A DNA stretch of 64,000 nucleotides from Myxococcales bacterium. Lineage in GTDB: Bacteria; Myxococcota_C; UBA6777. Where the stretch lies: assembly GCA_020632975.1 (NCBI GenBank), contig JACKEL010000001.1:151983-215982 (forward strand). Direction: 5' to 3'. Shown one piece after another: positions 15,080-58,248 of the stretch. The notes beneath the pieces are model-generated. The model had not been told where the DNA came from and did no database searches. It saw only the letters and a list, made by a program, of their open reading frames with translations. A program made the position numbers and the translations under genes. The stretch's first letter is position 1. Every line of letters begins with the position of its first letter.

Positions 15080-15081
15080 GC

Positions 15082-18000
15082 ATGTCCATTGCAGGTCTCT
15101 CCGTACGCCGTCCAGTCCTTGTCTCGATGGCGACACTCATCGCGGTGTTGCTTGGGGCGGTTGCATTTTTCCGCCTCCCCGTGGACTTGATGCCTGACGT
15201 TAGTTACCCGACTCTTTCTGTGTCTTCGACCTACGAGAACGCAAGCCCCGAAGAGATCGAGCAGTTGTTGACGCGACCTCTCGAAGAAGCCCTCAACGCG
15301 GTCCCTGGCGTGCAAGAAGTCTCGTCTGTTTCAGTCGAAGGTAGCAGCCAGATCCGCGTCACCTTCGCTTGGGGCGTCGATCTTGAAGCCGCTGCCAACG
15401 ATATCCGCGACCGTATGGACCGCGTTATCGGGAAACTTCCCGAACAAGCGACACGACCGACGTTGCGCAAGTTTGACCCCGCGAGCCAACCGATCTTGAT
15501 CCTTGGTGTATCGAGCGAGATCCCGATGATGCAAGCCAAACGCATCATTGAAGATCAAGTCAAACAGCGCATCGAACGTGTTCCAGGCGTTGCATCACTC
15601 GATATCCTCGGTGGCGACGAGCGCGAGATCCACGTCGACATCTACACAGGCAAGATGCGCTCTTTGGGTTTGTCGTTGGATCAGCTTCTACAACGACTCA
15701 AGGCAGAGAACTTCAACTCTCCCGCAGGCCCCGTAGAACGCGGAAACATCGAAGTCAACATCCGCACGGTTGGGCAGTTCCAAAAGATCGAAGAACTCAG
15801 GAATACCGTAGTCTTCGTGCGTGATGGTGCCCCAATCTACCTCAAAACCATCGCTCGCGTCTCAGACACCCGCAAAAAGCGCGCACAAATCGTCCGCGTC
15901 AACGGCAAGCCAGGTATCCGCCTTGCCATCCAAAAACAAGCGGGAACCAACACGGTCGAAGTCGCCAAACGCGTCCTCAAAGAACTTGAGCTGATCAACC
16001 GCGATGTAACGGCCCTGACCATCGTCCCGATCATCGACAACTCCAAGTACATCCAGCGCTCCATCGACAACATCGGTGAGTCCGTTATCTTGGGTGGTGT
16101 GCTGGCGATCCTCGTGATCTTATTCTTCCTCCGAAACTTTGGTAGTACCGTCGTTATCGCGCTCTCCATTCCGATCTCGATCGTGTGTACGTTTGCCCTC
16201 GTTTATTTTGCAGGCTTTACACTCAACTTGATGACCTTGGGCGGTCTTGCGCTCGGGGTCGGGATGCTCGTGGACAACTCGATTGTTGTCTTGGAAAACA
16301 TCTATCGACACCGAGAGGACGGGCTTACCCCACGTGAAGCAGCGATCCGCGGAGGTGACGAACTCACAGCAGCGATCATCGCTTCGACTTTGACGACCTT
16401 GGTTGTCTTCCTCCCTTTGATCTTTGCACGCGGTGTATCGGGTGCTTTGTTCAAGCAGCTTGCTTATGTTGTGGCCTTCGCACTCGTCTGCTCGCTGGTT
16501 GTGGCGCTCACGCTGGTCCCGATGTTTGCAGCGAGACTGCTTTCGCACGACCTCAATGCCCCCCAAGATCCGAACAGTTGGAGCGTAAGACTCTTTGCAC
16601 TCAGTGAAAAGCTTTTTACAGGGCTCGAATCCTTTTATGGATGGGCTCTTCGAAAAACCCTGAATTCACCGAGTACATTGATGGGTTTGATCATCTTGGC
16701 ACTCTTGGCTTCGTTGCTTTGTATGCGCGGTATCGGCTTCGAGTTGATGCCCTCCGCAGACGAAGGTGAACTACGCCTGAGCCTCAAGATGGAACCAGGG
16801 ATCCGCCTTGGCATCATGGAAACCAAGATCAAACAAATCGAAGCTGTCGTGCGAAAAGAAATCCCCGAACTCGTCAACATGGAAACCCGCGTAGGTGGGG
16901 GAGGATGGCGGGGTGGTGGCAACAACTCAGGCGAGATCCGCATCACCCTGAGTTCTCGAACAAAACGCAAGCGCTCCTCTGATCAAGTCGCCGCTGCGCT
17001 GTTTCGTAAAGTCCGCAACATCCCTGGGATGACGGTGCGTGTACGCGTCAGCAAAGGTATGTTTATGTTGAAACGTGCCATGAGCGGCGGAGATGAAAAG
17101 ATCCAATTGGAGATCCAAGGCTTCGATCTCAAGCAGAGTGCGGCCCTTGCGCGCAAGATCCAAGATGTAGCCGAAGAGATCCCTGGCGTCACAGATGCCC
17201 AACTCAGCCAAAGCGCAGAAGCCACCAACCCAGAACAATTCTTACAAATTGATCGCCAACGCGCGGGAGAGATGAATCTGAGCGTCACTCAGATCGCAAA
17301 CCTCCTTCAGACGGTCTTTACGGGTAGCATCGTCGGTTATTATCGAGAGGGCGGAAAAGAATACCCCATCCGTGTTCAATTCCGTAATGCCACCAAACTT
17401 TCCCAAGACGAGATCGAAACCCTTACACTCACCAACAGCGCGAACCAAGTGATCCAGCTAGGAAGCATCCTGCGAACAGAAAGTCGCCGTGGGCCCGGAC
17501 GGATCGAACGCCGCGCACAACAACGTATCGTTACCCTTGCGGTCAACGTCGTTGGGCGCGACATCAGTTCTGTCGTCGAAGACCTTCGTCTCGCAATCAA
17601 CAACATCCCCAAACCAACAGGCGTTTACGTTGCCTTCACGGGAGACCTTGAAGAACAACGAGCAGCCTTCCTTGAGTTGGTGTTTAGCATCCTGCTCTCT
17701 CTCTTGTTGGTGTATATGGTGATGGCGAGCTTGTACGAAAACTTCGCAGACCCCTTCATCGTCATGGGCTCCGTTCCTCTCGCTGCCATCGGTGTTTTGG
17801 TAACACTTTACTTCACGGGCACCACGCTGAACATGCAGTCGATGATCGGTTGCATGATGCTTGGCGGGATCGTCGTCAATAACGCGATCTTGCTCGTCGA
17901 TACAAACAACCAACTGCGTATCGAACAACCCTTGCTCCCCTTGAGCGATGTGGTCCGCGAGTCTGCAACACGACGCCTCCGCCCCATCTTGATGACCTCG

Positions 18001-18231
18001 CTCACCACCATCCTTGGCCTTCTTCCGATGGCCATTGGTGCTGGTGAAGGTGGCGAAGCACAAGCACCACTCGCAAGAGCTGTGATCGGGGGCCTTCTCA
18101 GCTCCACGATGATCACGTTGTTCTTTATCCCTTCGTTCTATCAGATCTACTACCGCAACCGCCCTGCCCCCGAACCCATCGACGCAGGCACCCCACCCAC
18201 AACCTCACCCACGGCCTCACCCACGGCCTAA
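15082..18231 (+). CDS. RND efflux transporter permease (AcrB/HAE family)
   Basis: 1049 aa with 12-TM architecture and large periplasmic loops. The N-terminus [40 protein letters not shown] is AcrB-like. AGGAGG RBS. The gene overlaps the MFP stop region. No outer-membrane factor gene is adjacent. Confidence 0.9.
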
Positions 18232-20766
18232 CCCCCAGCCTTCTCGCCTTCTTCGTACCGCAAGCAACAAGAACAATCCAAACAAACCACCCAACCATGC
18301 GGTGCCTTCGACCGATTGGCAGCCCATCCGCATCAAAGGTGCGCAGTTCGGGCCTTCACAAGCCGCTTGCGAGACCTGACAGATCTCCTTCGAACTATCG
18401 CACAAATAAGAGCTTGTGCTTTTGGACTCTTCCAACCAAGAGATCGGTGCCCCTTCTTGGCAGACCCCTTGGTAACAAGATGCGCCATCTGCACAACCGC
18501 AGTCCGCAGCGCAACCAGAGCAGTCCTCACCAAAGCTACAGACACCATCGCCGCAACGCGGTGCTTGCTCGTTTTCGTTGCAGTATCCGAGACCTCCAGC
18601 CAAACTCACCTGACAAAATCGACCACTTGGACATCCATGGACCGCAGAGCATCCACAAAACCCTTCATTCGGCTTGTTTCCAGGGATCACACATGCGCCA
18701 CCAGTGACCGAACAACCACCAGCTTCGCCAGGAACACAAGGTTCCAAACAGACCGAACCTTCACTGAGGTTCGCGCAAACCAAACCTGTTGCACACGCAT
18801 CCAAGGCCGAACAACGCTCACCCACGCCACGCGCTCGGCGACAAACACACGCCGCGCTATTGACATGACAAGCCACATCTTTGCTTGCATCGCGGCAGGT
18901 GGTGCCCGCCATACAACCGACTTCACCTAGCGTAGGAGGAGGAGGCGCACATGCCCCGATATCTTTGCGGAAGATCTGTTGAAACAAACCCTTCTCACAA
19001 CGACCCGTTTTGCACTGGCTATCTTGTGAACACACGCAAGACTTCCCTACACCCGTGATGTTCATGCAGCTACCACCATTGGAACAGTCTGCGTCAACCT
19101 CACAACGCTGTGCAAAACAAACAGGCGAGGGATAACCGATATCCGCGCAAAATCCGCCCAAGCCACACGCACCATCTCGACAAAAAGATCCAGGTGTTCC
19201 CAAAGAACGCTCCAACGCTCGTTGGGCAGGAGCTCCACAAAGGCGCTGACAAACACGTTTGTTCTCGTGGTTGTAGGCACACTGCAATCCAGGGGCACAG
19301 GGATGTGCATCATCGCATGACTGCTCAAGAGCCCGACCTTTGGGCATTTGACACTGGCCCCCACGACAAACTTGGGAACCCGAACAGTCGCGATCACTTT
19401 GGCAACCACACATCCCGCTGACAGGTACGCAAGAACGACCGCCGCCGATCTCTTGGCAAGCATAACCCGAAGGACAAAAGACCCCAGCTTCACACGCTTG
19501 CAAACAACGAGAGGTCTCAGCACCCAACTTCACGCATCGCTGACCCACTGCACAAGTACCACTTTGACAAGCTCCACATGCCCCCGCAGCCACCGCCACA
19601 TCAGGAACAGAACACTTCCCAGAGCGACAGATCTCACCAGCACCGCAGTCATCATTTTTCTTACAAGTGGTTTCAGAACACGAGCCCGCCAAAGGCAAGC
19701 ATTGTTTGACACCTTGGATCGTTCCGCAAGCATAGCCCGCAGGACAAGCATCATCGCGTCCACAAGTCTGCAAACAACGATATCCTTCCGCCAAACGAGC
19801 ACAAAAATTCCCGTTTCCACCGCACTCTTGCGAGACAGAACAAGGACGACAAAGACGCCCATGACTCGCGGCTTCAGTCGGCACACAAACACCATCTCGA
19901 CACTGTGCCCCCACACCACACGAGCTATCTCCTTGGCACGCGGGGAACTCTTGCTGCTCGACTTGTTCCATCCAACTTCGATAGACATCCACGCGGAAAG
20001 CAACCGAACTACCGTCACAACGAGACTGTCCAGTATCGTCTTTGGTGCCCATCCCATAAGAGATCACACCTGCAACAACCAAACCTCCCGACTCTTGGAG
20101 CAAAACAGGACCGCCTGAGTCACCACTACAAGCACTGCGTCCCATCGCATAACCTTCGAGGCGATCCGCTTGCATCTTCAACAAAGGCAAGATCGCTTGA
20201 AAACGACGCTTCGCACCCACCACAAAAGGAGTCGTCTGCAACAGACCGTAGCCTGTCCACACCATCTCTGTACCAATCGCCAAAGAGTCCATCGGACGGG
20301 AAACAACAGGCAAAGGCTGCGCGTGATGAACCACACGATCCAAAAACAAAAGCCCCAGATCATTTTGCGGGACCTGTCCAAGCTCCGCTGACGAAGCGGG
20401 ATGCTCGATGGCTTTTGTGACTGTGTAATAGGCACTTGAGATCTCGCCATGGATGGGAAGATCCAAACGAAACTCCACGGGAGTCCCTGCTTTCATCAGG
20501 CGATGGATCTCTTGGATACAGTGGGCTGCCGTCAAAACGGTACGCCCTTGAATCAAAGCACCCGAACAAAAAGGAATGCCTCGTCGCGCAACCAAAGCCC
20601 CGACCCCTTGCATCCGCTCTGCGGGAACGCCCCCGATGATCTTTTTCTCCTGGACCCCGATCTCTTCGGGGCTATATTCGTTTGCACATCCCATCGCTAG
20701 GAGCGCCAAACCTACCAAACAAAACAAGCCTACCCAACGAAAAAGCCCGCTTCCGTGCCGCTTCAT
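18217..20766 (-). CDS. secreted trypsin-like (S1) serine protease lipoprotein with about 15 Cys-rich modules and C-terminal MYXO-CTERM-type sorting tail
   Basis: Start MKRHGSGLFRWVGLFCLVGLALLAMGC (lipobox). Catalytic triad His in TAAHC, Asp in QNDLGLLFL, Ser in GDSGGP. Repeated C-x3-DC-x2-G-x2-C-x3-G-x-C modules follow. The C-terminus is ...[36 protein letters not shown] (GC, hydrophobic span, Arg cluster). Confidence 0.8.
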   Translation of the reverse strand: MKRHGSGLFRWVGLFCLVGLALLAMGCANEYSPEEIGVQEKKIIGGVPAERMQGVGALVARRGIPFCSGALIQGRTVLTAAHCIQEIHRLMKAGTPVEFRLDLPIHGEISSAYYTVTKAIEHPASSAELGQVPQNDLGLLFLDRVVHHAQPLPVVSRPMDSLAIGTEMVWTGYGLLQTTPFVVGAKRRFQAILPLLKMQADRLEGYAMGRSACSGDSGGPVLLQESGGLVVAGVISYGMGTKDDTGQSRCDGSSVAFRVDVYRSWMEQVEQQEFPACQGDSSCGVGAQCRDGVCVPTEAASHGRLCRPCSVSQECGGNGNFCARLAEGYRCLQTCGRDDACPAGYACGTIQGVKQCLPLAGSCSETTCKKNDDCGAGEICRSGKCSVPDVAVAAGACGACQSGTCAVGQRCVKLGAETSRCLQACEAGVFCPSGYACQEIGGGRSCVPVSGMCGCQSDRDCSGSQVCRGGQCQMPKGRALEQSCDDAHPCAPGLQCAYNHENKRVCQRLCGAPAQRALERSLGTPGSFCRDGACGLGGFCADIGYPSPVCFAQRCEVDADCSNGGSCMNITGVGKSCVCSQDSQCKTGRCEKGLFQQIFRKDIGACAPPPPTLGEVGCMAGTTCRDASKDVACHVNSAACVCRRARGVGERCSALDACATGLVCANLSEGSVCLEPCVPGEAGGCSVTGGACVIPGNKPNEGFCGCSAVHGCPSGRFCQVSLAGGLGYCNENEQAPRCGDGVCSFGEDCSGCAADCGCADGASCYQGVCQEGAPISWLEESKSTSSYLCDSSKEICQVSQAACEGPNCAPLMRMGCQSVEGTAWLGGLFGLFLLLAVRRRREGWGLGRG

Positions 20767-20843
20767 CGCACTTCTCCCGTCCCGCATCCCTTGCAGGAAT
20801 TATTCAGAAAAATTCTTAGATGAGATATGCCATCAAGGAGAGA

Positions 20844-23024
20844 TTAGGAGGCGATTTCCAAAGCCACGATCTCGTCCGAAAGATGGCGATGAAGGGAAGA
20901 CTTTTGCTCAGAAAAAGCTGTATTTTTTCGTTGAGAGAGCACCAATGAGGTCGCATCTTCTTCGTACAACGGCCGCGAAAAATAATATCCTTGGCCCATA
21001 CGACATCCGTCTTCCCAAAGAAGCCGATGTTGGCGCGCTGTCTCGATGCCTTCCGCGATCACACCCAACTTGAGATGGCTCGCAAGAGACAAGATCATGT
21101 GGATGATAGACCGCCCACCTTCTCGTTCTTCCATGTTCCTAACAAATGAACGGTCGATCTTGATCGCATCTATAGGGAATTGATGAAGATAACTCAAAGA
21201 AGAGTATCCTGTCCCAAAGTCATCCATGCAGATCTCAACCCCTAAACCCCTGAATTGATGAAGTAAATCAATCGCAACTTTGGTATCTTCCATCAAGATA
21301 CTTTCTGTGATCTCGATCTTCAACCAAGAGGCATCGATCCCTGTTTCTCGAATCAAGTCCGACAAACGCTCGACCAAAGCTGGCGTCGCAAACTGCTTGC
21401 TCGAAAAGTTCACATGCAAAGAGAGGATATCCTCCCGACTTCTCATGCGATTCCACTCTGCAATCTGCTTGCAGGACTGCTCCAAAACCCACCAACCGAT
21501 CTTGACGATCGCTCCTGTCGCCTCCGCCAACGGAATAAACTCAACAGGTGAGATCATCCCTCGTTCTGGATGGTGCCAGCGCAACAGAACCTCAAATCCC
21601 TTCAAATCGCCCTTGTCTAGGGAAACAAGCGGTTGGTACATCAACACCAGCTCACCTCGATCACTGGCTCCCCAAAGATCTTGCTCAAGTTGAAGGCGCG
21701 AACGAAAGCGTTGTTGTGCTTCTGCATCGAAAACTCGATAAGTTCCAGGGCTTTCGTCTTTGACCTGACGCAACGCCAAGTGCGCAGCAGCCAGCAACTC
21801 ATCCGCAGTGGAACACTGCTCGTGAAGATAAGAGATCCCACAACTGATGCTCGGATGATACTCGAACCCACCCAGATCCACAGGATCGTTGAGATGGCCC
21901 AAACAGTCTTGCGCAGCCAAACAACTCTCTCCTACAGAGCCTGTACCACGAAAGACCACCGCAAACTCATCGCTGCCCAAACGACCGAGGAAAAGACTGC
22001 GCGGTGTACACTTCAACAGCCTTTGCGCAAGCGTTCGCAACAAACGATCGCCCGTCGAAATCCCCCAAGTATCGTTGACTTTAGAAAAGCGATCCACGTC
22101 AAACAAAAACAATGTACAGCCATTTTCAGGTTGTATACCCTGCTGACACTCCCGTCGCAGCGACTCCATAAACGCTTCTCGATGCAACAAACACGTCAGC
22201 AGATCATGTTGGGCACGCAAACTCACATGTTGATCTGTTTTCATTCGGCGTTTGATCGCTGACATCGTGCCAATCACACGCAAAGGACGACGAGCGGGGC
22301 CATACACACAAAGACCGCGAAGTTGTACCCACAAACGCTTCCCATCCTTCGAAAGAAAACGCAGCTCGTGGAAGAAAGATTGCTCACCGCGCTCCAACAT
22401 CCGGGAGATCAAACGTTGAAGCTCAGTTCTTTCCTCTGGATGAGAAAGCCGCAACCACTCCTGAAAAGACATCACGCCCGTATCCCCAGGAAGATAGCCC
22501 AACAAACGCTCGCAACCCGAATACATCTTGACCTGGTGAGTCTCGCAGTCCCACTCCCACAAGTGATCTCCCGAACTCTGCGCCAACAAAGCACGCACAC
22601 GCTGGATACGATGTTGCCTGTCTGCACCATCGCGCTCCTGTTGCGCAGCACGCAAAAACAAACGCAGCGTCTCGCTTGTTAACCACTTGAGCGGGATCCC
22701 CAAAGAGATCTCAGACCACATCTCTTGGGGGATGTTCTCAACGTTCAACCCTCCCAACAAAACAATGCTAAAGGACTGATATTGTTGGAGACACAAACGA
22801 TACAGCTTCGCATAATCATAAAAGTCATGCGTCGAAAGAAACAACACAGTAAACTCTGATCGCCCCAGTGCTTCCATCTCCTTCAAATCTGAAACAAAAT
22901 GAAGAACACTTTGGATGGCTGGGTCTTCTGGCCAACGCTGACGCAAGGCTTCAAACTCCCCAACGTCTTTCCCAAGAAAAACAGAAAGAAAAATAGAAGG
23001 TTCATAGTTTACATTTTCTGGCAT
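20844..23024 (-). CDS. PAS-GGDEF-EAL c-di-GMP turnover protein (GGDEF variant RLGSDEF; EAL variant EVLLR)
   Basis: PAS-like region WEWDCETHQVKMYSGCERLLGY. GGDEF domain with RLGSDEFAVVF. EAL domain with EVLLRWHHPERGMISPVEFIPLAE and DDFGTGYSSL. ATG 23024. It lies 77 bp upstream of the protease gene on the same strand. Confidence 0.85.
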   Translation of the reverse strand: MPENVNYEPSIFLSVFLGKDVGEFEALRQRWPEDPAIQSVLHFVSDLKEMEALGRSEFTVLFLSTHDFYDYAKLYRLCLQQYQSFSIVLLGGLNVENIPQEMWSEISLGIPLKWLTSETLRLFLRAAQQERDGADRQHRIQRVRALLAQSSGDHLWEWDCETHQVKMYSGCERLLGYLPGDTGVMSFQEWLRLSHPEERTELQRLISRMLERGEQSFFHELRFLSKDGKRLWVQLRGLCVYGPARRPLRVIGTMSAIKRRMKTDQHVSLRAQHDLLTCLLHREAFMESLRRECQQGIQPENGCTLFLFDVDRFSKVNDTWGISTGDRLLRTLAQRLLKCTPRSLFLGRLGSDEFAVVFRGTGSVGESCLAAQDCLGHLNDPVDLGGFEYHPSISCGISYLHEQCSTADELLAAAHLALRQVKDESPGTYRVFDAEAQQRFRSRLQLEQDLWGASDRGELVLMYQPLVSLDKGDLKGFEVLLRWHHPERGMISPVEFIPLAEATGAIVKIGWWVLEQSCKQIAEWNRMRSREDILSLHVNFSSKQFATPALVERLSDLIRETGIDASWLKIEITESILMEDTKVAIDLLHQFRGLGVEICMDDFGTGYSSLSYLHQFPIDAIKIDRSFVRNMEEREGGRSIIHMILSLASHLKLGVIAEGIETARQHRLLWEDGCRMGQGYYFSRPLYEEDATSLVLSQRKNTAFSEQKSSLHRHLSDEIVALEIAS

Positions 23025-23305
23025 GGTAATTCCCTTTCTGCTTACAAGGATGCAACTGTTTTTCTGAAACAAAAAGAGAGGACAATGTTGCATATTTTCC
23101 CGAAAGCCCGAACTCGACAGAACAAGATGTGTGAGAAAGATAAAGAATGAAATATCATTTATCTTTCAAGAGATAAGCGCAAATATCACTTCTTTCTGGT
23201 ACGAACAAACAAGAAAGAAGCTGCGATCTTCTGTTTGCGTATGGGATAGAACGTCTACCGTGATAAAACCTTTAGACCCTTTCCATACATATCCCCAAAG
23301 ACAAC

Positions 23306-23546
23306 GATATCCAGGATAGATTCGGGCGGACATGGAGGTCCGCCACAGATACGGGATATCCAGGATAGGTTTGGGCGGGCCTCCGTGCCCGCCTCTATCT
23401 GCCCCCGCGTAGGCCTGAGATCATCTATCCCGATCAAGGGCGAGCCTCCGTGCCCGCCTCTATCTGCCCCTGCGTAGGCCTGAGATCATCTATCCCGATC
23501 AAGGGCGGGCCTCCGTGCCCGCCTCTATCTGTCCCCCGCGTAGGCC
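23306..23546. repeat. REP-like palindromic repeat cluster: about 4 units, each carrying hairpin GGCGGGC-CTCCGT-GCCCGCC (one inverted copy GGCGGAC-ATGGAG-GTCCGCC), unit about 65 bp
   Basis: Direct reading shows gatatccaggataga...gggcggacatggaggtccgcc, then gatatccaggataggtttgggcgggcctccgtgcccgcctctatctgcccccgcgtaggcctgagatcatctatcccgatcaa, repeated about 2.7 times. The cluster sits in the divergent region between the GGDEF/EAL gene and the PilZ gene. Confidence 0.7.
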
Positions 23547-23678
23547 AAACCAAAAATATTTCAAAAAAGCCTTAAGGAGCATCCCTCTTCGTCGTATTGT
23601 TTTTTACAGAAACGAAAAGCCATCAAGTCCTCAAGACGAGGGCGATATTTTCAACAATATTTTCATGGAAGAAAAACA

Positions 23679-24836
23679 ATGTTGGATCATCACAAAGAAC
23701 CTACCCAAGACGTACAGTTAGTCCACCAATCCAAAAGTGCTTACAAAGCAGCGAACTACAATCACATGCTTGATCGAGCAAGCGAGGTAAAACAACCCGA
23801 AAAAGAATTACAACGTTTGACCACACAACGTAGAAAACTTTACGATCACTACCGAACTTTCGAAGCTCATCGCCAAGTAGATCCTGAAAGCATCCAAGAG
23901 ATGCACAATATGTTGTTGCGTATCTTTGCCAAACCTCACGATCTTCCATCGCTTTATACGCAACTTGAAGAAGAGTGCGAAAAAGAACTCGCACAAATAG
24001 AAGAATTATTTACAAAGTGCCAAAAAACCCTAGCGATGTGGACAAAAGTAAGCGACGAGATTCGCCATCGCTTGCGGCTTTTGGACTCTTTAGAGATCCG
24101 CCTAACTCTTTTTGCACAGAAAAAAGAGGCAGCGGAAAAAAATCAAAAAAAAGCGACTGAAAAAAACCAACAGAAAAAAGAACGACTGGATATTGGGAAT
24201 TGGCAAGCAAACCCCACAGACACAATTCCTGATCTCCCAGCAGCGACCGAAAGTTCGAGAACGCAAATGAAAACGCACCAAACCATAAACCTAGGCAGCC
24301 CAGTCACACATACGGCTGAATACGCAGCGGCTGCGGCCCCAGCTCCACAGTTGTACCAGTTCCAACAACCACTGGTACCTCCAAAGTTGCCTGAGGCTCC
24401 CCCAAAAACGGTTCAAGCCAAAGCGCCGTCACCCATGCAAACCTCAACACCAAGCGAGCAAGCAGGCGCAGAACGCAGACGCGCTCCTCGGTTGCGCCTT
24501 GCTTCGGATATCACCATCGGAAGAGAGGAACACTGCTTCTTTACAGGATTTTCCGAGAACATCAGTTCAGGTGGAGTCTTCATCGCAACCTATGAAGCTC
24601 TTCCCAAAAAAGGCTCGATTTATGAGCTTTGTTTCTCCCTTCCTACGGGTGAGATCATCCAAAGCGAAGTCGAAGTGATGTGGTCACGTGACTTCAACGA
24701 ACAAACGCCCGAGATCTCCCCAGGATTTGGCTGTCGCTTTCGACAGCTCAAAAAAGCCGATCAAGAACGCATCGATCAATACATCGCCAAGGAAGGCTCT
24801 CTCTTCATGCTTGAAGAAGAAGAGTTGGCGGCTTGA
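23679..24836 (+). CDS. PilZ-domain c-di-GMP-binding protein with N-terminal coiled-coil region
   Basis: C-terminal PilZ signature RRRAPRLR...DITIGREEHCFFTGFSENISSGGVFI (RxxxR plus D/NxSxGG). Long coiled-coil, Lys/Glu-rich N-terminal half. Confidence 0.75.
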   Translation: MLDHHKEPTQDVQLVHQSKSAYKAANYNHMLDRASEVKQPEKELQRLTTQRRKLYDHYRTFEAHRQVDPESIQEMHNMLLRIFAKPHDLPSLYTQLEEECEKELAQIEELFTKCQKTLAMWTKVSDEIRHRLRLLDSLEIRLTLFAQKKEAAEKNQKKATEKNQQKKERLDIGNWQANPTDTIPDLPAATESSRTQMKTHQTINLGSPVTHTAEYAAAAAPAPQLYQFQQPLVPPKLPEAPPKTVQAKAPSPMQTSTPSEQAGAERRRAPRLRLASDITIGREEHCFFTGFSENISSGGVFIATYEALPKKGSIYELCFSLPTGEIIQSEVEVMWSRDFNEQTPEISPGFGCRFRQLKKADQERIDQYIAKEGSLFMLEEEELAA

Positions 24837-24859
24837 CACTCCAAGAAAGGACCGCAACC

Positions 24860-25228
24860 ATGAACAGCATCACTGAATTTCCCGAAGAGCGTTTGTCAGA
24901 TCATATCACCCCTTCTCAGGAGATCTTCATGAGCGAAACTTCCGAGAATTTGGATCGCAGCTATCACCCTGACTTTGTCCGAAAACAATCTGTGCGTGTT
25001 CGTGTCCTCTTGACCAACGGCAAAAACTGCATCGGAAACTGCCATGTCCTTTGGCCCGATGGCCGTGTCAGCGATGTCGTCAACGACGATCGCAGCTTCT
25101 TGATCATCACAGATGCGTCCGTTGAAGGCGAAGCCCAATCCTACAGCGTGCTCACCCTCAACAAAACCCAAATCGCGATGCTTTTTGAGATCCACAACGC
25201 CGCCAACATCCAAGAAGAGTCGGCATAA
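24860..25228 (+). CDS. hypothetical small protein, likely co-transcribed with the PilZ gene
   Basis: ATG 24860 with AAAGGA 9 nt upstream, 24 nt after the PilZ stop. 122 aa. No recognised motif (VRVLLTNGKNCIGNCHVLWPDGRVSDVV...). Confidence 0.4.
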   Translation: MNSITEFPEERLSDHITPSQEIFMSETSENLDRSYHPDFVRKQSVRVRVLLTNGKNCIGNCHVLWPDGRVSDVVNDDRSFLIITDASVEGEAQSYSVLTLNKTQIAMLFEIHNAANIQEESA

Positions 25229-25264
25229 ACCTCAGAAAAAGTCTTACAAACAAGCGATCCCAAC

Positions 25265-26278
25265 CTATCGGCTTTTGCGCAGAGGAAACACCTTGGGATC
25301 TCCAGCTGACCAAGCCCACATCGAGCCCGCATAATTCTTCACTTCTTTTGCCCCCAAAACATGCAAGACAGCCACCATCCAAGCTGATCGCACACCTCCT
25401 GTACAATAAGCGACGATCGGTTGGCGAAGAGAGAGCCCATGTCCCTGCATGATCCGCAAAAGCTCTTTCCGAGAACGCAAGCGACCATCCTTCCGTAAAA
25501 ATCGCCGATAATACAATGAAACAGCCTTGGGGAGATGCCCCCCTCGTGACTCTCCATAAGGCGTTTCCCCTCGAAACTCACGTGGTTCCCGAACATCCAC
25601 GATCTGCAACTTCTCTTTTCCTGCCAAGCGTGCCACCAGTCGCTCGCGCAAAACTTTCGTAGAGATCGACCAACGCTTCACTGTCTGCCACGATGTTCGC
25701 TCAGATCTTTTCGTGGGTAAGGGCTTTGCGCGTTGGGGTCTTTTGTGTGTAGGTTTCCCGCCTTCCCATGCCTCTTTTCCCAGAGAAGCCCGCAAAAAAG
25801 GCATCCCACCATCCACAAAAGCTACGCGTCGATGACCAAGCGACCGCAGCATCCAAACGATCCGCCCTTCTTCCCCCCAGCCTCGTAATGGATCACCGAC
25901 GACGATCACCACGCGCTGTTTCGAGATCCCGATCTGCTCAAAAGACCGAACCAACCGTCGAACAGAGGCCAGTTCACCACGCCAAGGCTTGCGCTTTCGA
26001 GAAAAGTCCAACCACTCCACACACACAGAACCACGCACATGTAGACGAAGCCATGCGGACTTACCACGAACATCAAGGACCAAAGCCCCTCGACGAATCC
26101 ACAAAGCCCCCTCTTTTGCTGAGACCACCCAAGGAATCTCAGCAACCGCGATGGCCCACTTCATCCCGCCCAGCCACACAAAACTTGCCAAACCGCACAA
26201 CAAGATCGCTCGTTTCAATGGGATACTCCTCTCACAAACACCAAAGCATCGGGCAAAAACGACACACGCCATCTCCAT
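25265..26278 (-). CDS. tandem rhodanese-domain sulfurtransferase (C-terminal domain with active Cys)
   Basis: Second domain carries AYCTGGVRSAW (the CxGGxR rhodanese active-site loop). The first domain lacks Cys. An N-terminal hydrophobic segment is present. The start is uncertain: ATG 26278, 26272 or 26164. Confidence 0.7.
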   Translation of the reverse strand: MEMACVVFARCFGVCERSIPLKRAILLCGLASFVWLGGMKWAIAVAEIPWVVSAKEGALWIRRGALVLDVRGKSAWLRLHVRGSVCVEWLDFSRKRKPWRGELASVRRLVRSFEQIGISKQRVVIVVGDPLRGWGEEGRIVWMLRSLGHRRVAFVDGGMPFLRASLGKEAWEGGKPTHKRPQRAKPLPTKRSERTSWQTVKRWSISTKVLRERLVARLAGKEKLQIVDVREPREFRGETPYGESRGGHLPKAVSLYYRRFLRKDGRLRSRKELLRIMQGHGLSLRQPIVAYCTGGVRSAWMVAVLHVLGAKEVKNYAGSMWAWSAGDPKVFPLRKSR

Positions 26279-26588
26279 CCAACAAAAAAAGCCAATACGA
26301 CCACCGCTTCATGCCCACTGTAGGCCTGCTCTCTCCCCAAAGGAAGAGCAACGCATCCTCCTCTCCCTCCAACGCAACACAAAACGACGCAGGACTCGTT
26401 CGTTCGTCCAAGAAACCCCGCCAACAAACGCTGAACCAACGAGAAGTCGCTTCACACCCGCAAGGTTTCGTGCCAAGATAGCCAAAACGATCATCCACGG
26501 GGACAAAAGAACTATAGATATCAGCTACTTTTATCCCCCCAAAAGAAAAGAATGCGCACAGCGCGCCAAAAGCATAAAGGAGCGAGCC

Positions 26589-29500
26589 TTGTTGGGGTCA
26601 TGGAGACAAGCAGGAAAGTTTTGGGGCCTGTTGTTTGGATTATGTTTTTTGGGGGCTTGTTTTTCGAACGCGCCAGCTCCCGAACAACTCAAACACAAAC
26701 AACAAGCCATCATCGGAGGCCAACCCGATCTGCGCTATCCAGGCGTAGGTGCGCTGACCGTCAACCGCTCCTCTTTTTGCACGGGAACCTTGATCGCCAA
26801 ACGCGTTGTATTGACGGCGGCTCACTGCGTGGACGCGGCCAACAGTTATCGCGGAGCATCTGTGGAGTTTCGCATCGATACGCCCGATGCCAACGCATCT
26901 TCGGGTTACCAAACCAATTACTTTGTCTTTGATCCCGACCTCTTCAAAACACATCCCATCTGGAACACCAATCTCTCCAATGGCGGTGATCTTGGGATCG
27001 GGATCTTAAAACAAAGCGTCACGGTTGCCCAAACCATCCCCGTGAACTTCAACACCAATGCTGGTCTTTGGTCCAACAAAAGCCCGCTTTTCCTAGGTTA
27101 TGGACTCTTACAAAGTACACCCACACGGATCTCCGCAGATCGTAAATATGGGGTAGAGATCCCGATCGTGCAGGTCAATACGGATCGCTTTACGCACCAA
27201 GCCAACGGAAAAAGCGTTTGTCACGGAGACTCAGGTGGTCCTGCTTTGGTCCTCGTCGATGGAAAAGTCCGCGTGATCGGCGTCAACTCCTATGTATCCG
27301 CAGCATCCGTCCCTGGCGCCAACCCACCTCGCTCAAGTTGCACGGGCTCGGGAACCTCTATGCGGACGGATACTTACAGCACTTTCGTTCAATCGGTACT
27401 CTCTAGCTATGGTGATGGTCCTGAACCTTGCACACAAGACGAAAACTGCGGTGTTTGCCGTCGCTGCGGTGCCAACAAGTTTTGCGAAGGGGTACCCATC
27501 CAAGTCTCCCCCAGCATCTGTGGGGCTTGCTTGGCAGACAAAGACTGCCCTGGGGGTGGCTGTTATCGCTTCCCTGAAGGCAACCGCTGCTTGCTTCAGT
27601 GTGACACCCAAAACTGCTGTCCTGACGGTCATTATTGCACGACTGTACAAACCTCCTCAGGGCTCAATAAAGTCTGTATGCCTTTTGAAGGTGCCTGTCC
27701 TCCCCTTCAATGTAAGACATCTTCTGACTGTGGCGCAGGAGAGTTTTGCGAAAATCAAAAGTGCCAACCCAAGCCTGTCGCCCGAGCAGCCGACCTTTGC
27801 AAACCTTGCCAAACCCAAGCAGACTGCCAAACCACAGGAGGGTACTGTCTTGGCTTGGAAGGACATCGCTATTGCACACAACCCTGTAACGCTGGGGATT
27901 TCTGCCCTGCAGGATACGCATGCCAAGAAGCCTACCCAGGCATCCCCAGACAGTGCTTGCCAGAAAATGGCGCTTGCCAAGTGCCTTGTATGTTCGACAT
28001 CCACTGCCCAACAGGACAAACTTGTGTAGGTGGCGTTTGTGCAGAGCCACAAGGCGGAGATGCCGGGGCATCTTGCGACCCTGTCCCATGCAAAGAACCC
28101 CTTTCTTGTGTCTCCACCCTAAGCGGAAAACGCTGCCTTTCGACTTGCGGCGCCCCCCCCTCCAAACCCGGAAGCGCTTGCGCTGATGGGACGCGATGTG
28201 ATGCGCCCATGTCTTGCTACAGTATCTCTTCCACCCAACAGATCTGTCTCCACCCCTGCAACGCTGACGAAGACTGCAACAAAGTGGGGGGTGGCTTTTG
28301 TTACCAAAGCGTCTGCGCTTGCCAAAAAAGCCAAGACTGTGGACAAGACTTTATCTGCAACACAAGCTCAGGTGTGATCGGGGCTTGCGTCTCCAACAAA
28401 GACATCCAATCCTGCGAAAACAGCGACGCTTGCGACGCCTTCCAAGGTCAAAGTTACTGCATCCAACCCAACCCCGGTACACGCGCCTTGGGGCAGTCTT
28501 GTGACCCTCTCAACCGCTGCAAAGAAGGGCTTGTCTGCACCAAAAGCAACGATGGATATTTCTGCGCAGAAGACTGTAGCCAAACCCAAGCCTGCAAGTT
28601 TGGCGGATACTGCGGAAAACCCAACACACAAGTTGACATCTGTTATTGTGCGGAAGACAAAGACTGCGGCCCAGATTACACTTGTAGCCGCGTATTTCGG
28701 CCTTTTGGTATCTGTGTAGGAAAGCTCCTCAACAATCCCTGCCAAAGTGACGGTGCCTGTCCCCCTGGATTTGCTTGCCGTGAAGGTCGATGCCTATCCC
28801 CCACAGAACTCGAACAGTGGAAACCCGAACCTGCTCCACCCGATGCAGGCCCCGAATCCCCCACAGAGTCCGCGCTCGAAGCAGTGCAAGAGTCCCCCAA
28901 AGAAGCGACCCCCGAACCCCAAGTGGAGCCTACCCCCGAAAGACAAGCCGAGGCACCCGCAGAGATCGCACCCGAACAAACCAAACCAGGATGCGGTTGT
29001 CAGTCTTCTCCTACACCATCCACACCCTTTTCATGGGGACTTTTGATGCTCTTCGCCTTGCTCTGGCTCCCTCGCCCCAAAAAACGCGAGATCCGCCTAA
29101 AAGAAATACTCCCTACTCTGGCTTTCTTTTTTCTTACAGGCTGCCCCAATCCTTCGGTCCCTTGTAGCCAAGACACAGAGTGCCCAACCAACCAGCGCTG
29201 CCAAAGCGGGACTTGCCAAGCTGGCTCCTCGGAAACCACCACCCCAGAAAAAACCACAGAGCCCCAAACAGAGTTGACCCCCGAACGCACGCCCGAACCG
29301 ACCTCCGAGCCTCAAGCAGAGCCGAGACCAGAACCTCAAGTGGAGCCTGCCCAAGAAGCGTCCCCAGAACCTCAACCCGAGGCAGGACCCGAACCTCAAC
29401 CCGAGCCTTTACCCGAACAACTCACAGATATCGCCCCAGGCCAACGCCCCAACCCCTGCGCCCACACCAACGATCCGACATGTTGTTCTCCCACCATTTT

Positions 29501-32500
29501 ACAAAGACGTTGGGAAGCTTTTAACGACAACAACAGTCGTTTGGGCATCATCCGCATCGCGCTCAGTCCAGACGGAAAATGGATGGCGTCCGTCAACGAT
29601 GAAGGCCGCATCGTCCGCATCTGGGATATCGACAAAGGGCAACTCAAGTACACTTTTGTCGAGCCCAGCAGCACCATGCAAGCGGTCTCTTTTAGTCCTG
29701 ATAGCCAAGTCGTCGCAGCAGTCGGTAGTGATCGCGTCGTGCGGCGATGGAGCCTCAGCGATGGAACGACACTGCCCTTACTCCAAGGACACACAAGCAC
29801 CGTCTATGCGGTGGCTTTTAGCCCAGACGGTCAGTGGATCGCGAGTGCAGGCGCAGATCGCGTGATTCGCTTATGGAAAGTAAGCGACGCAAGCCTTACC
29901 TTCGAGATGAAGGGACACACCAGCACGATCTGGACCTTGGTTTTTGCCCCCGACAACAAGACGCTATACTCCGCATCCAGCGACCAAACCATCCGTTACT
30001 GGGACGTCAGCACAGGAAAAGAAACCCAACAATACAAGCTACATACCGCAGCAATCCGCGGTTTAGCGATCAGTCCAGATGGAAAAACACTCGCTTCTGT
30101 CGCTCTATCTCCCGATCGCACCGCAAAGTTGATCGAGGTCGCCACAGGAAAAGAACTCCGCTCATGGCAAGCCCACGGAAGCAGTTCATTGTACGGCGTC
30201 GCTTTCAACCACGATGGAACGCGTCTCGCGACCGTCGCAACCGATCGCTATGTTCGTGTGTGGAATGCCAATACAGGGCAGATGCTCTACCAACATCGTG
30301 CAGACGCAACGCCCTACAGTGTCTCTTTTCACCCGGATAAAACGAGGATTTTTGTCGCCTCATCCGATCAACATGTACGCATCTTCAATGATACCAGCGG
30401 ACAAGTGACACAAACGCTCCACACAAACTTCGACCGTGTTTCAAGCGTTGCGATCTCACCTGACGGAAAAGTCGTTGCTTTTGCCAACGCTCGCATCAAC
30501 AACATCCAGCTTTGGGATCGCCAAACCAAACAGCTTCTGCGCACACTTCAAGGACATACGCATGGGGTTCGCGCCCTCTCCTTTAGCGCCAACGGACAAT
30601 ATCTCGCCTCCGCCTCGACAGATCGCAGCGCACGGATCTGGAATCTTTCGGATGGAAGCCTCGTTCGCGCGCTAGACGCCCATCCCATGGTCGTAAGCAG
30701 CGTCGTACTCAGCGCCAATGGAGAAACCGCCGCAACAGGTTCATGGGACGGCAAGATCCGCATCTGGAAGATCGCTGACGGCTCTCTCTTGCGCACACTC
30801 GAAGGACACACCAGAGAGATCGTCCATCTCGCCCTATCTTCGGATGAAAGTGTATTGGTCTCTTCTTCGATCGATCAAACAGCGCGTTTGTGGCAGTGGT
30901 CAGATGGCGCCCCCCTGCAAACCGTACAAGCCAACGCACCAGTCTACGGTTGTGCGATCTCTCCAGACAAAAACACCCTTGCTGTCGGCGATTGGGAGGG
31001 GCGTATCCTCCTTTGGCAAGCTAGCACGGGCATGTTGCAAAGCACACTCCAAACCCACAGCGCCAATGTCCGCAGCCTCGCCTTCGACGAACAAGGTGCG
31101 TGGCTGGCCTCTGCTTCTTATGATCGTACCGTTCGGATATCGCGGGTCAGTGATGGAGCGCTCCTCCAAACCTTGCGACCACGCAACCAATACGTCACAA
31201 GCGTTGTCATCCAAAAAGAGACACTGGCAACCGCAGGAGCGGACGGAAACGCCGACATCTGGGACTTTCAACCCGTCCCGCCGGTCACGAGTCTGGCAGA
31301 ACAAAAGAGCCCCATCCTCGCTCTCTCTCTCAGTGCGGACGGCAACCTGATCGCAACAGGGACAGCCGACCATCAGGTCCGTGTATGGGACCGAACCCAA
31401 AAGACGTGGCTTCACACCCTGTCAGGCCCACAAGATGCGATCAATGCACTCGCAATAAGCCCTGACCAACGCTTTTTGGCCGTTGCATCGGCCGATCGTT
31501 CGATCTACGTCTGGAGCCTCGCAGATGGCAAGCTTTTGCGCGCCTTCCAAGGACAACAAGATCAACCATCCTCTGTCTCGTGGAGTCCAGACAGCAACGT
31601 CTTGGCTGTGGGTGCTTGGGACGGTAGTGTCCGAACTTGGGCTTGGCGCTCAGGACTCAACCAAAGAACCTTTCTTACAAACAACAGCCGAACCTTGAGC
31701 GTGGCCTTTAGCCCTGACGGAAACAACCTAGCAGCGGGACTTTTCAATCAAGAGATCATGATCTTTGAAGTCGCTTCAGGCAAACATCTCCGCACGCTCC
31801 AAGGACATACAGGCGGCGTAACGCATCTGCTGTTTTCAAGAGATGGAAAAAGCCTTTATTCGGCCTCTTACGATCAAACCATACGCATCTGGGACAGCAG
31901 CGCAGGAAACCTCCGCAACACACTCCAAGGACACAGCAACACGGTCCAACAAGTCAGCCTGAGCCTCGACGAAAGTCTCCTTCTATCAGTATCTTGGGAT
32001 GGGACACTACAGATCTGGGATCTTGCCAATCTTCAAATGCTTCAAAGAATCCATCTTGACCAAGGCGCCCTCTACAGCGCAGCTTTGAGCGCAGACAGTC
32101 GCTTTTTGGTTGCAGGTGGCGCAGATGGCGAGCTACGCAGCTGGGACCTTTTGCGCGATCCTCGACAACAGATCCTCGAACGTAATCCCCTCAGCGTCCG
32201 CGCATTGGCCTTCAGCATAGACGGAAACTACTTGATCTCAGGCAACGACAACGGTCTCGGACGCATCGATCGTCGTAGTGACTGGCGCTGGCTTCACTCG
32301 ATCTACAGCCACAGCGCAGACCTTCGCGCCATCGCGATGAGCCCCGACAGTTCGCGCTTTGCGACAGTGGGTGCAGACAAGCGCGTCCGCGTCGCAAGCA
32401 CCAGCGACAACAAAGAACAATTCAACGACAACAAACAACACACAGCCCCCCTCCACGCCGCAACCTTCAGCCCAAATGGTCAAACTTTGGCCACCGCAGG

Positions 32501-33041
32501 CGAAGACAAGCAGATCCTCCTTTGGTCGATGAGCACCAATCAAGTGACCCAAACCCTCACCGGACACACCCAAACCATCACGGCTCTGGCCTACCACCCC
32601 AAAACAAACTGGCTCGCATCTTCTTCGCTCGACCAAAGCATCCGACTTTGGGACCCCACCAACGCCACGATCCTCCGAACCCTTTCAGGACACACCCAAG
32701 GCGTCATCAGCTTGGATGTCCACCCCCAAGGAAACGTGCTCGCATCTGCCGATCAAGGCGGAGAGATCCGCATCTGGGATACACAACAAGGCACCACCCT
32801 ACAGACTCTCACCTCCAACGTCGCCCCCACCCAACTGCGTTTCAGCCCCAACGGACACTGGCTTGCCATCGCTTACATCGACGGGCACGTTGAACTTCGA
32901 GAGACGATCTCTTACAAAGTCTCCCACACCTTGCAACTCCAACGCATCCCAACCTACGCCCTTGCGTGGTCCGCGGATGCCCAAACAATCGCCCTTGGCG
33001 ACCAAGCCGCAGGGATCTCGCTGTTCACTTGCAGCCCCTAA
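26589..33041 (+). CDS. giant lipoprotein: S1 serine protease, then Cys-rich modules, a PE-rich linker, an internal MYXO-CTERM-like segment, a second lipoprotein-like signal, and about 28 WD40 repeats
   Basis: TTG 26589 is preceded by AAGGAG at 6-nt spacing. The track ORF from 25989 would overlap the rhodanese gene. Signal [25 protein letters not shown]. Triad TAAHC / NGGDLGI / GDSGGP. More than 15 Cys modules, then ...[36 protein letters not shown], then [18 protein letters not shown], then WD40 units ([30 protein letters not shown]... repeated to 33041). Confidence 0.8.
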   Translation: [2150 protein letters not shown]

Positions 33042-36700: not shown

Positions 36701-41019
<4,319 letters not shown>

Positions 41020-41026
41020 GAGGCCC

Positions 41027-41377
41027 ATGGAAGATCCGAAAACAAAGCCGAGCTCTGTGCCTTCCTCTCCTTCGAAGCCTTGGCCCGAACATGTGGGACA
41101 CCGCGAACAAAGAAAGCTGCGCGCACGCCAAGAGGGGCGACCTCATGTCTGGTTTGGCTTGGGGATGTTCGGGCTGATCGGTTGGTCGATTGCGCTTCCA
41201 ACCGTGTTGGGCGCTCTGTTGGGGGTTTGGATCGACCACAGATGGCCGAGTCGTTTTTCTTGGACGCTGACTCTGATCTTTTTGGGCCTTCTGTGGGGCT
41301 GCAACCAAGCTTGGTACTGGATCACCAAAGAAAGCCACCAACAACAAACCCAAAAACCACCCAACGAGGACAACTAA
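41027..41377 (+). CDS. atpQ: N-ATPase accessory membrane protein (AtpQ/AtpZ-like, 2 TM)
   Basis: Small protein with two TM helices (VWFGLGMFGLIGWSIALPTVLGALLGVWI; WTLTLIFLGLLWGC). Its position between atpC and atpB fits the N-ATPase gene order. Confidence 0.5.
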   Translation: MEDPKTKPSSVPSSPSKPWPEHVGHREQRKLRARQEGRPHVWFGLGMFGLIGWSIALPTVLGALLGVWIDHRWPSRFSWTLTLIFLGLLWGCNQAWYWITKESHQQQTQKPPNEDN

Positions 41378-41381
41378 TCCC

Positions 41382-41705
41382 ATGTTACCGCTTACTTTTT
41401 GGGGTTTAACCTTTTCTTTTGTTGCAGGGCTGTTCATCGGCGGCATCTACTTTTGGGGCCTGTGGTGGACCACCCAACGACTGCCTCATCTACGCAGCCC
41501 GGGCGTTTGGCTGCTTGGGAGCTTTGCGCTTCGCATGGGGCTTGCATTGGTGGGCTTTTATCTGGTGATGCAAGGGCGCCCAGAGCGGTTGTTGTTGTGT
41601 ATGGTTGGCTTTTGGATCGCCCGCCTTGCATCTGTTCGTATGGTCCCAGCCTCTCCACCTCGATCCCCCTCGAAGCCCCCTGAAACCTCGGAGGAATCGG
41701 TATGA
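41382..41705 (+). CDS. atpR: N-ATPase accessory membrane protein with Arg in TM helices (AtpR-like)
   Basis: 107 aa with 2-3 TM helices carrying Arg (SFALRMGLALVGFY; FWIARLASV). Directly precedes atpB. Confidence 0.5.
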   Translation: MLPLTFWGLTFSFVAGLFIGGIYFWGLWWTTQRLPHLRSPGVWLLGSFALRMGLALVGFYLVMQGRPERLLLCMVGFWIARLASVRMVPASPPRSPSKPPETSEESV

Positions 41706-42406: not shown

Positions 42407-42428
42407 CCACAAAAAAGGAGTTCCTCTC

Positions 42429-42719: not shown

Positions 42720-42763
42720 GCAGAACATCCGAAACAACCGCACATTGCGCAAAGGAGCCGTTC

Positions 42764-58173: not shown

Positions 58174-58248
58174 CGTAACATCCTTGTTTTGCAGTAAAAA
58201 GGCCACCAGTCCGTGGTAGCCTTCAAGTGAAAGAATCTCTCTTTTTTC

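Follow-up and report, generated by a model that had tools for sequence, protein, structure and literature searches.

Our analysis concerned a 64,000-nt stretch of a Myxococcales bacterium genome (assembly GCA_020632975.1, contig JACKEL010000001.1, positions 151,983 to 215,982; hereafter the window) that encodes two related S1 serine proteases, here called protA and protB. protA and the long open reading frame (ORF) that begins with protB are inverted, transcribed away from each other and about 5.8 kb apart, and between them lie genes for a PAS-GGDEF-EAL protein, a PilZ-domain protein, a DUF6812 protein and a rhodanese-domain protein (Table 1). A first-pass annotation of the same DNA had located these elements correctly, apart from the rhodanese gene (25265-26278), which it overlooked, and had tied the proteases to the neighbouring cyclic di-GMP (c-di-GMP) genes. 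Our results point instead to a conserved partner of protB that this annotation had missed, a WD40 lipoprotein encoded in the same ORF. As the best explanation of the whole, we consider it probable that the conserved unit is protB together with this WD40 lipoprotein, and not the proteases together with the c-di-GMP genes. Locus numbers (L) and protein numbers (P) used below are our own.

The ORF at 26589-33041 (plus strand) runs uninterrupted over 2150 aa; no stop codon follows the sorting tag of protB, and NCBI annotates a single gene. What had been called a mega-protein does start with a protease paralog of protA (aa 1-834), but it is really an in-frame fusion of this protease with a WD40 lipoprotein (aa 835-2150). 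The WD40 part matched Pfam WD40 (PF00400) with 622.8 bits (E 1.5e-194) in 16 stretches, and many other beta-propeller families matched as well. Its repeat period of about 42 aa over about 1175 aa gives about 28 blades, which is consistent with four 7-bladed propellers. Over its full length, the WD40 part is 37% identical to the product of a separate 1340-aa gene at locus L001 and 62% identical to the fused protein of a second genome, GCA_964267905.1 (L088). The true start of the ORF is TTG 26589 with AAGGAG ahead of it; an upstream extension that begins at TTG 25989 overlaps with the rhodanese gene, which lies on the opposite strand, and is neither used by NCBI nor shared by the L088 ortholog.

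The same pair of proteins was found in split form at loci L001, L085 and L086/L087. There, the protB orthologs (P0001, P0002 and P0003; BLASTP identity 48-51%) stop immediately after the tag, and a separate WD40 lipoprotein gene (1340-1371 aa) with its own ribosome-binding site and ATG follows directly 3′. The two genes overlap by ATGA in L001 and L086/L087, lie 1 nt apart in L085 and are translationally coupled, and the neighbours of these pairs are otherwise unrelated from locus to locus. The junction segment of the fused ORF is equivalent to the start of the separate WD40 genes in L001, L085 and L086, and its hydrophobic segment appears to be what was once the WD40 gene's lipoprotein signal peptide and has become internal.

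Fused ORFs were not restricted to the window. A search with protB in 5.8 billion proteins gave no relative longer than 1190 aa, and an exhaustive search of 1.84 billion representatives (50%-identity) then found the fused forms: in addition to those in the window (2150 aa) and L088 (2215 aa), four further representatives (P0247-P0250, 2162-2275 aa) were detected, which rules out that the fusion is unique to the window. In all fused proteins the same series is preserved: a GC(x)C motif, a hydrophobic helix and a basic cluster, after which come a variable linker of 10-55 aa and a hydrophobic segment ending in Cys. The first three are the elements of a MYXO-CTERM sorting tag, which is described in the literature as a tripartite signal of Cys motif, transmembrane (TM) helix and basic cluster recognised in an MrtX and type II secretion system (T2SS) pathway (PMC11980579). 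In the window 1316 residues follow this tag, which is therefore not at the C-terminus, and the same holds for L088 and P0247-P0250. Fused and split proteins interleave in the family tree, the split P0002 and P0003 grouping with the fused P0247 (bootstrap 96%) and the fused protB and L088 proteins with the split P0001 (86%), so the state must have changed at least twice. A further combination was found in P0073 and P0083 (1190 aa), in which a single WD40 propeller of about 290 aa is inserted in the middle of the Cys-rich region while the rest is colinear with protB; here protease and WD40 were combined independently. A literature search on MYXO-CTERM together with WD40 returned no papers.

We considered whether the 2150-aa ORF could be an assembly or sequencing artefact that joins two genes through a lost stop codon or a frameshift at an A6 run near 29075. 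Relatives do have two genes, the homopolymer CCCCAAAAAA lies just before the join, and deletion of one A from it gives a stop (PKNARSA, then the stop codon). Such a correction, however, would leave the WD40 gene without a ribosome-binding site and without any start codon of the ATG, GTG or TTG type. Moreover, the same open frame is present in L088, an independent assembly of a different species (72%/62% identity), where it runs across an unrelated 45-aa linker, and it recurs in the four further representatives at less than 55% identity. Because the downstream part would lack both start codon and ribosome-binding site, and because five other fused proteins exist, we reject a sequencing error and regard an artefact as exceedingly improbable.

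Table 1. Features of the protease region and its surroundings (window coordinates; Pfam values are E-values).
Feature	Position	Strand	Remarks
MFP (membrane fusion protein) gene	13556-15079	+	HlyD Pfam; 74% identity to L088
RND pump gene (AcrB-type)	15082-18231	+	Pfam ACR_tran 7e-258; 84% identity to L088
protA	18217-20766	-	849 aa; putative lipobox, S1 protease, Cys-rich region, MYXO-CTERM; Pfam Trypsin 1.9e-18
protA, C-terminal sorting tag	~18220-18348	-	
protA, protease domain	~19972-20640	-	
PAS-GGDEF(GSDEF)-EAL gene	20844-23024	-	726 aa; Pfam EAL, GGDEF, PAS_3
EAL domain	~20970-21674	-	
GGDEF domain	~21753-22214	-	
PAS domain	~22263-22529	-	
Divergent intergenic region	23025-23678		654 bp
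REP-like (repetitive extragenic palindrome-like) repeats	23306..23567		inside divergent intergenic region
PilZ gene	23679-24836	+	385 aa; PF07238
PilZ domain	~24471-24788	+	
DUF6812 gene	24860-25228	+	Pfam DUF6812 1.8e-11
Rhodanese-domain gene	25265-26278	-	Pfam Rhodanese 3.1e-22
protB part of the 2150-aa ORF	26589..29090	+	putative lipobox, S1 protease, Cys-rich region, Pro/Glu-rich linker, internal MYXO-CTERM
protB, protease domain	~26712-27398	+	
protB, internal MYXO-CTERM tag	28986-29090	+	begins PGCGCQ
Junction	29091..29144	+	basic stretch, then short hydrophobic segment ending in putative lipobox
WD40 part	29145..33041	+	one Cys module, Pro/Glu-rich linker, ~28 WD40 blades
WD40 blades	~29538-33038	+	

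The two proteases of the window belong to one family. protA and the first 834 aa of the fused ORF align with 35% identity over 712 aa (BLASTP, E 6e-88), in agreement with the first-pass annotation, which had called the genes paralogous from their shared IIGG...GVGAL...TAAHC start. It had also named 30% identity outside the catalytic motifs as a lower limit for this relationship; in our family alignment the protease domains are 38.3% identical and the Cys-rich regions 34.6%, the latter falling to 22.7% only when the Cys columns are left out. Both proteins matched Pfam Trypsin (PF00089, cut-off 20.6), with 67.5 bits for protA and 66.3 bits (E 4.7e-18) for protB, and protA is 100% identical to the NCBI protein P0085. 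The search in 5.8 billion proteins returned about 90 full-length protease relatives of 780-940 aa, nearly all from metagenome-assembled genomes (MAGs) of Myxococcota or "Deltaproteobacteria", and 24 full-length members including both window proteins were aligned. A scan of contigs with the family alignment keyed on the generic GDSGGP and TAAHC motifs, so that most of the 80 loci it returned held unrelated S1 proteases; among them only L004-L006 and L010 are family members.

Across the 24 aligned members, both window proteins included, the catalytic triad H82, D136 and S217 (in TAAHC, D and GDSGGP) is invariant, as are about 60 Cys. The order of elements is shared throughout: a hydrophobic N-terminus, Cys27, IIGG shortly after, a Cys-rich region, a Pro/Glu-rich linker and a tail of GCGC, hydrophobic helix and RRRR. 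Cys27 follows the hydrophobic stretch in 24/24 members and reads as the Cys of a putative lipobox, although the candidate lipoboxes, as read from the sequences, are non-canonical (LAMG-C and FLGA-C at the N-termini, FLTG-C at the internal site). Each family protease would accordingly be built from a predicted lipoprotein signal, a short propeptide with its end immediately ahead of IIGG, the S1 domain, a disulfide-rich region, the Pro/Glu linker and the tag. An AlphaFold2 model of protA (mean predicted local distance difference test 74, mostly 80-96 in the protease domain) was matched by Foldseek to plasmin, chymotrypsin, elastase and factor D with E of about 1e-15 and TMt of 0.7-0.8; the matches to the full model cover the protease domain only, and no fold was identified for the Cys-rich region. 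Residue 189 (chymotrypsin numbering) reads as Ser in both protA and protB, so specificity for Arg or Lys is not expected.

The sorting tags of both window proteins passed the cut-offs of the MYXO-CTERM hidden Markov models, in keeping with the earlier proposal of surface-sorted proteases. The tail of protA scored 20.5 bits with TIGR03901 (cut-off 20) and 18.0 bits with TIGR03382 (cut-off 15.85), and the isolated tag segment of protB 28.1 and 22.3 bits, respectively, with 19.5 bits in full-length context. The tag of protA is truly C-terminal, since the protein ends 9 aa past RRRR. For MYXO-CTERM proteins, the current view is anchoring through the tag helix, lipidation of the Cys, an MrtX cut distal to this Cys and export by the T2SS (PMC11980579). 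No gene of the CPBP family (myxosortase-type) was found among the annotated ORFs of the window.

Two described systems resemble these proteases in their design. VesB of Vibrio cholerae is an S1 serine protease with a GlyGly-CTERM tag that is processed by rhombosortase and secreted by the T2SS, and through its tag VesB stays at the cell surface once exported (PMC6219818). VesB and the window proteins share a chymotrypsin-fold protease, an N-terminal signal with propeptide and a tripartite C-terminal sorting tag. The tag in the window is however MYXO-CTERM, with an invariant Cys and myxosortase as the expected processing enzyme, and no GlyGly-CTERM model was among the NCBIfam matches; furthermore, the window proteins have a putative lipobox, a Cys-rich region of about 500 aa and a Pro/Glu-rich linker, and one clade has the WD40 partner. 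TraA (MXAN_4924) of Myxococcus xanthus, from the same phylum, combines a signal, a PA14 head, repeats rich in Cys (TIGR04201) and a MYXO-CTERM tag (PMC3325183, PMC11980579), and the sorting pathway has been shown for this protein (PMC11980579). Both TraA and the window proteins thus carry a head domain, a long Cys-rich region proposed as a rigid stalk and MYXO-CTERM, but the head in the window is an S1 protease and not PA14, a putative lipobox is present and the tag is internal in the fused forms. With TIGR04201, protB reached 18.3 bits (cut-off 25) and protA gave no hit; the resemblance between the Cys modules of the window and the TraA repeats is one of design only. Since the Cys-rich region of TraA was interpreted as a stalk (PMC3325183), the disulfide-rich region of the family proteases would by analogy act as one.

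The presence of a complete tag and a putative lipoprotein signal back to back suggests how the fused product might be handled. The 2150-aa precursor would insert in the inner membrane as a hairpin, with the tag helix running from outside to inside, the former signal peptide from inside to outside and a basic cytoplasmic loop between them, so that both large parts would lie outside the cytoplasm. Myxosortase would cut after the tag Cys and signal peptidase II before the lipobox Cys. From these two cuts, we infer, two lipid-anchored envelope proteins would arise, the same two that the split genes encode, and this would explain the tolerance of fusion and fission. The WD40 propellers could then be the protease's partner for docking or for recruiting substrates. 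We advance only tentatively, and as rather less likely than the pairing of protB and WD40 lipoprotein itself, that the junction makes the product a self-resolving polyprotein, cut into a surface protease and a WD40 lipoprotein at a fixed 1:1 ratio. Several observations weigh against such a precursor. MYXO-CTERM is defined as a C-terminal tag, and here a whole second protein follows it. The second hydrophobic segment of the window protein has only about 12 residues and the loop about 10, so a stable hairpin is not certain. An in-frame Met ahead of the second signal is found in L088, P0247, P0248 and P0249 and none in the window; the WD40 part could come from an internal start instead.

Beta-propellers are also known to assist other proteases, such as the tricorn protease and prolyl oligopeptidase, in which a propeller could gate or recruit substrates. 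The likeness, to be taken as a lead, is a propeller associated with a serine protease, but the window has classical WD40 repeats of about 28 blades on a separate or fused lipoprotein.

A second, unrelated internal tag was observed in an M10 (matrixin) peptidase at L093 (3454-5010) and also at L091 (748-2376). This protein carries a MYXO-CTERM-like tag (TCSTQG, a hydrophobic stretch and ARRRQ; TIGR03901 21.1 bits), followed by a signal-peptide-like segment and a further domain of about 230 aa.

The relationship between protA and protB is old. In neighbour-joining trees of the family, a deep split divides the clades of the two. The identity of protB is 53% with P0001 and 73% with the L088 ortholog, that of protA 41% with P0074, its nearest relative, and 56% with the L088 ortholog; the duplication is ancient. 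The first-pass annotation had suggested an ancient inverted duplication around a regulatory core. The age of the split is as proposed, but nothing shows that the paralogs originated in place, and other MAGs carry them on separate contigs. That protA and protB arose locally around the regulatory genes and stayed there would fit with their being full-length colinear paralogs in inverted orientation at a short distance, and with the same inverted arrangement in L088. Yet each has closer relatives in other genomes (protB and P0001 at 53%, protA and P0074 at 41%) than the mutual 35%, and at the loci of such closer relatives that were compared the genes stand in unrelated contexts with the other paralog not nearby. 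In addition, MAG M3003 has family members spread over three contigs, and no inverted repeat is left at the DNA level. We therefore hold an in-place duplication to be very unlikely.

The c-di-GMP genes between the proteases were well identified. Their earlier domain assignments were all recovered by Pfam: in the PAS-GGDEF-EAL protein, EAL (PF00563) with 246.9 bits (E 2.3e-73, cut-off 31.3), GGDEF (PF00990) with 105 bits (E 4.2e-30) and PAS_3 (E 3.4e-13), and in the PilZ protein PF07238 with 46 bits (E 7.2e-12, cut-off 22.5), next to 57 bits with TIGR02266. The EAL motifs read EVL, HVN, EITE, DDFGTGYSS, KID, AEGIE and GQGY. The GGDEF signature is degenerate, with GSDEF for GG[DE]EF in both the window and the L088 ortholog, and the sequence contains no RxxD I-site and no TM segment; this protein is probably not a cyclase and is probably a c-di-GMP phosphodiesterase, as judged from these motifs. 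Its best NCBIfam match was DibA (NF045675) with 381 bits, below the cut-off of 980 bits. It shares with DibA-type proteins the PAS-GGDEF-EAL order, a degenerate GGDEF and complete EAL motifs, but differs in this low score and in an extra N-terminal domain of about 140 aa without family match. The predicted binding motifs of the PilZ protein, RxxxR (RRAPR) and NxSxxG (NISSGG), are intact and conserved in L088; a conserved, coiled-coil-like region makes up its N-terminal part, and the protein and its L088 ortholog share 56% identity. The small coupled ORF of the first-pass annotation is real and encodes the DUF6812 protein, but its conserved start is ATG 24860, 23 nt past the PilZ stop codon, and not the overlapping TTG 24833; it is 74% identical to the L088 ortholog, with which it shares an MN.IT start. 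A literature search on DUF6812 returned no papers.

PilZ followed by DUF6812 also occurs in L088, L094/L095 and L096, and L093 clusters genes for REC-GGDEF-EAL, PilZ and DUF6812 proteins. Because of this recurrence, PilZ and DUF6812, together with the EAL gene, therefore form a recurrent unit of their own. In L093 the three genes lie within 8.5 kb, with an FHA-GGDEF gene and the tagged M10 peptidase beside them. L092 and L093 are two population variants of one marine Myxococcales contig that share the FHA-GGDEF, REC-GGDEF-EAL and PilZ cluster; beside it, upstream of position 5522, one variant has DUF6812 and the M10 peptidase and the other a 1079-aa lipoprotein with MopE-like Cys-rich and WD40 repeats. 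In L096 (12287-14653) the PilZ-DUF6812 pair lies amid genes for an ATPase of the T2SS or type IV pilus (T4P) type with an MshEN domain, for a response regulator of the HD-GYP type and for an FHA-GGDEF protein, a context that hints at a role of the pair in c-di-GMP control of a secretion or pilus ATPase. A metagenome scan with DUF6812 gave a single locus, L091, with the M10 peptidase and sugar transferases and no PilZ.

Whether the c-di-GMP genes control the proteases, as the first-pass annotation had proposed, depends on how their adjacency is read. The EAL gene does lie upstream of protA, on one strand with it and at a distance of 77 bp, as the ORF coordinates confirm; this gap holds a GGGAG ribosome-binding site and no terminator-like hairpin was found in it, so that co-transcription of the two genes in this genome is possible. 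The neighbourhood is conserved in one relative only, but this is enough that the refutation set by the first-pass annotation, a lack of conservation in every relative, does not apply: L088 has the same gene order, with MFP, RND, protease and PAS-GGDEF-EAL genes, then divergently PilZ, DUF6812 and the protease-WD40 fusion (identities 51%-84%). Control of protease expression or deployment, through an EAL-protA co-transcript or an action of PilZ on secretion, would draw on this spacing, on the intact PilZ binding motifs and on the recurrence of the whole arrangement in L088. It would also draw on two further loci: L093, where the EAL, PilZ and DUF6812 genes cluster within 8.5 kb of the M10 peptidase with MYXO-CTERM, and L096, where PilZ-DUF6812 adjoins the MshEN-type T2SS/T4P ATPase, MYXO-CTERM proteins being users of the T2SS (PMC11980579).

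Against this, the collinearity of L088 and the window extends for at least 27 kb, from a GH114 gene (67% identity) to the gene after the fused ORF and with small insertions only, and because this stretch includes unrelated genes such as the RND pump gene L088 is not an independent observation. Its EAL-protease gap is 463 bp long and contains a GC hairpin, and alignment of the window's divergent intergenic DNA with its L088 counterpart revealed no conserved motif. The flanks of eight other substantial family-protease loci (about 150 kb) contain no GGDEF, EAL, PilZ or DUF6812 gene; the family loci free of c-di-GMP genes are L001, L002, L004 (a short 2.2-kb contig), L005, L006, L010, L084, L085 and L086. 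Conversely, no tagged S1 protease was found at the PilZ-DUF6812 loci L094-L096. Myxococcota genomes carry many c-di-GMP genes, and given this abundance a chance adjacency would not be rare. The spacing and the L088 arrangement thus stand, but we regard c-di-GMP control of the proteases as unlikely; the position of the c-di-GMP genes next to the proteases is most simply explained as inherited synteny. Two facts sit less well with inherited synteny, namely the retention of the c-di-GMP genes next to both proteases in two genomes, and the clustering of EAL, PilZ and DUF6812 genes with an M10 peptidase bearing an internal MYXO-CTERM in the distant lineage L093, from which there may be a real functional link between c-di-GMP genes and tagged peptidases. 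The lesson we draw is that adjacency in two collinear genomes is no evidence of regulation.

A known case of c-di-GMP acting on an extracytoplasmic protease is LapD-LapG, in which a c-di-GMP receptor controls a periplasmic protease. The likeness lies in a GGDEF-EAL protein near a protease gene. However, the window protein lacks TM, periplasmic and HAMP parts, its EAL motifs are intact, the proteases are of the S1 type and not LapG-type cysteine proteases, and the NCBIfam LapD model gave 103 bits on the window EAL protein against a cut-off of 1020 bits.

The divergent region between the EAL and PilZ genes is filled with repeats, as had been noted before: we found 2.7 tandem units of 65 nt along with partial copies related to them, a GC hairpin (GGGCGGGCCTCCGTGCCCGCC) in each of these units, and a fold z-score of -5.1. 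The same hairpin, GGGCGGGCCTCCGTGCCCGCC, is found again at 38918-38988, in an unrelated intergenic region; the L088 region homologous to the divergent region lacks it. From this second site and the absence in L088 it follows that the repeat is a dispersed, lineage-specific REP-like element and not a conserved regulatory site or operator.

The remaining genes around the proteases showed few ties to them. The rhodanese gene between the DUF6812 gene and protB is missing in L088 and is a lineage-specific insertion in the block. The MFP and RND efflux genes (13556..18231, plus strand) are convergent with protA and belong to the block collinear with L088, with no evident functional tie to the rest of the region. 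A 12-nt tandem repeat, CACCCACAGCCT, is present four times at 18194-18241, in the 15-bp convergent overlap of the RND and protA ends, where it encodes the GWGLGRG tail of protA. Elsewhere in the window, envelope and signalling genes at 2483-5062, 48876-52328, 54745-58206 and 60508-62052 encode an M1 peptidase that carries HEAT repeats, two Ser/Thr kinases, of which one has TPR, and a glycoside hydrolase combining GH9 and laminin-G; no link of the M1 peptidase, kinase and GH9 genes to the proteases was seen. An ATP synthase operon at 38930-46087 (plus strand) has an atypical order, with beta first, then a, a b-delta fusion, alpha and gamma, which we take to resemble N-type ATPase operons. Furthermore, GC skew is negative in every 2-kb bin of the window (1-64000; -0.04 to -0.25), and third-codon-position skew, counted in plus-strand letters, ranges from -0.08 to -0.47 for genes of both strands. 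The plus strand is thus rich in C and A regardless of gene orientation, an asymmetry that looks like an unusually strong replication-type mutational bias.

Taken together, the results delineate a family of surface S1 proteases in Myxococcota with a proposed Cys-rich stalk. Extracytoplasmic WD40 propellers have become linked to its members by more than one route: through a neighbouring gene, by fusion and by insertion of a propeller. These combinations point to a partnership of protease and propeller, possibly in predation or cell-surface remodelling. The parts, that is a tagged S1 protease, a TraA-like stalk, EAL and PilZ, are of known kinds; what is new is the junction of an internal MYXO-CTERM with a putative lipobox in a recurrently fused cassette. 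Sorting tags such as LPXTG, PEP-CTERM, GlyGly-CTERM and MYXO-CTERM are defined by their position at the protein end, but this clade keeps a complete MYXO-CTERM and a lipoprotein signal back to back inside an ORF of 2150-2275 aa that close relatives carry as overlapping genes. The pattern of fused and split forms suggests that internal tags can be myxosortase substrates, and that joining or separating the two genes is neutral as long as neither sorting signal is lost. If the fused precursor is indeed resolved in this way, the switching between fused and split forms would be a natural experiment and MYXO-CTERM would work as an internal endoproteolytic sorting signal, and the internal tag in the L093 M10 peptidase would mean that these Myxococcota do this more generally.

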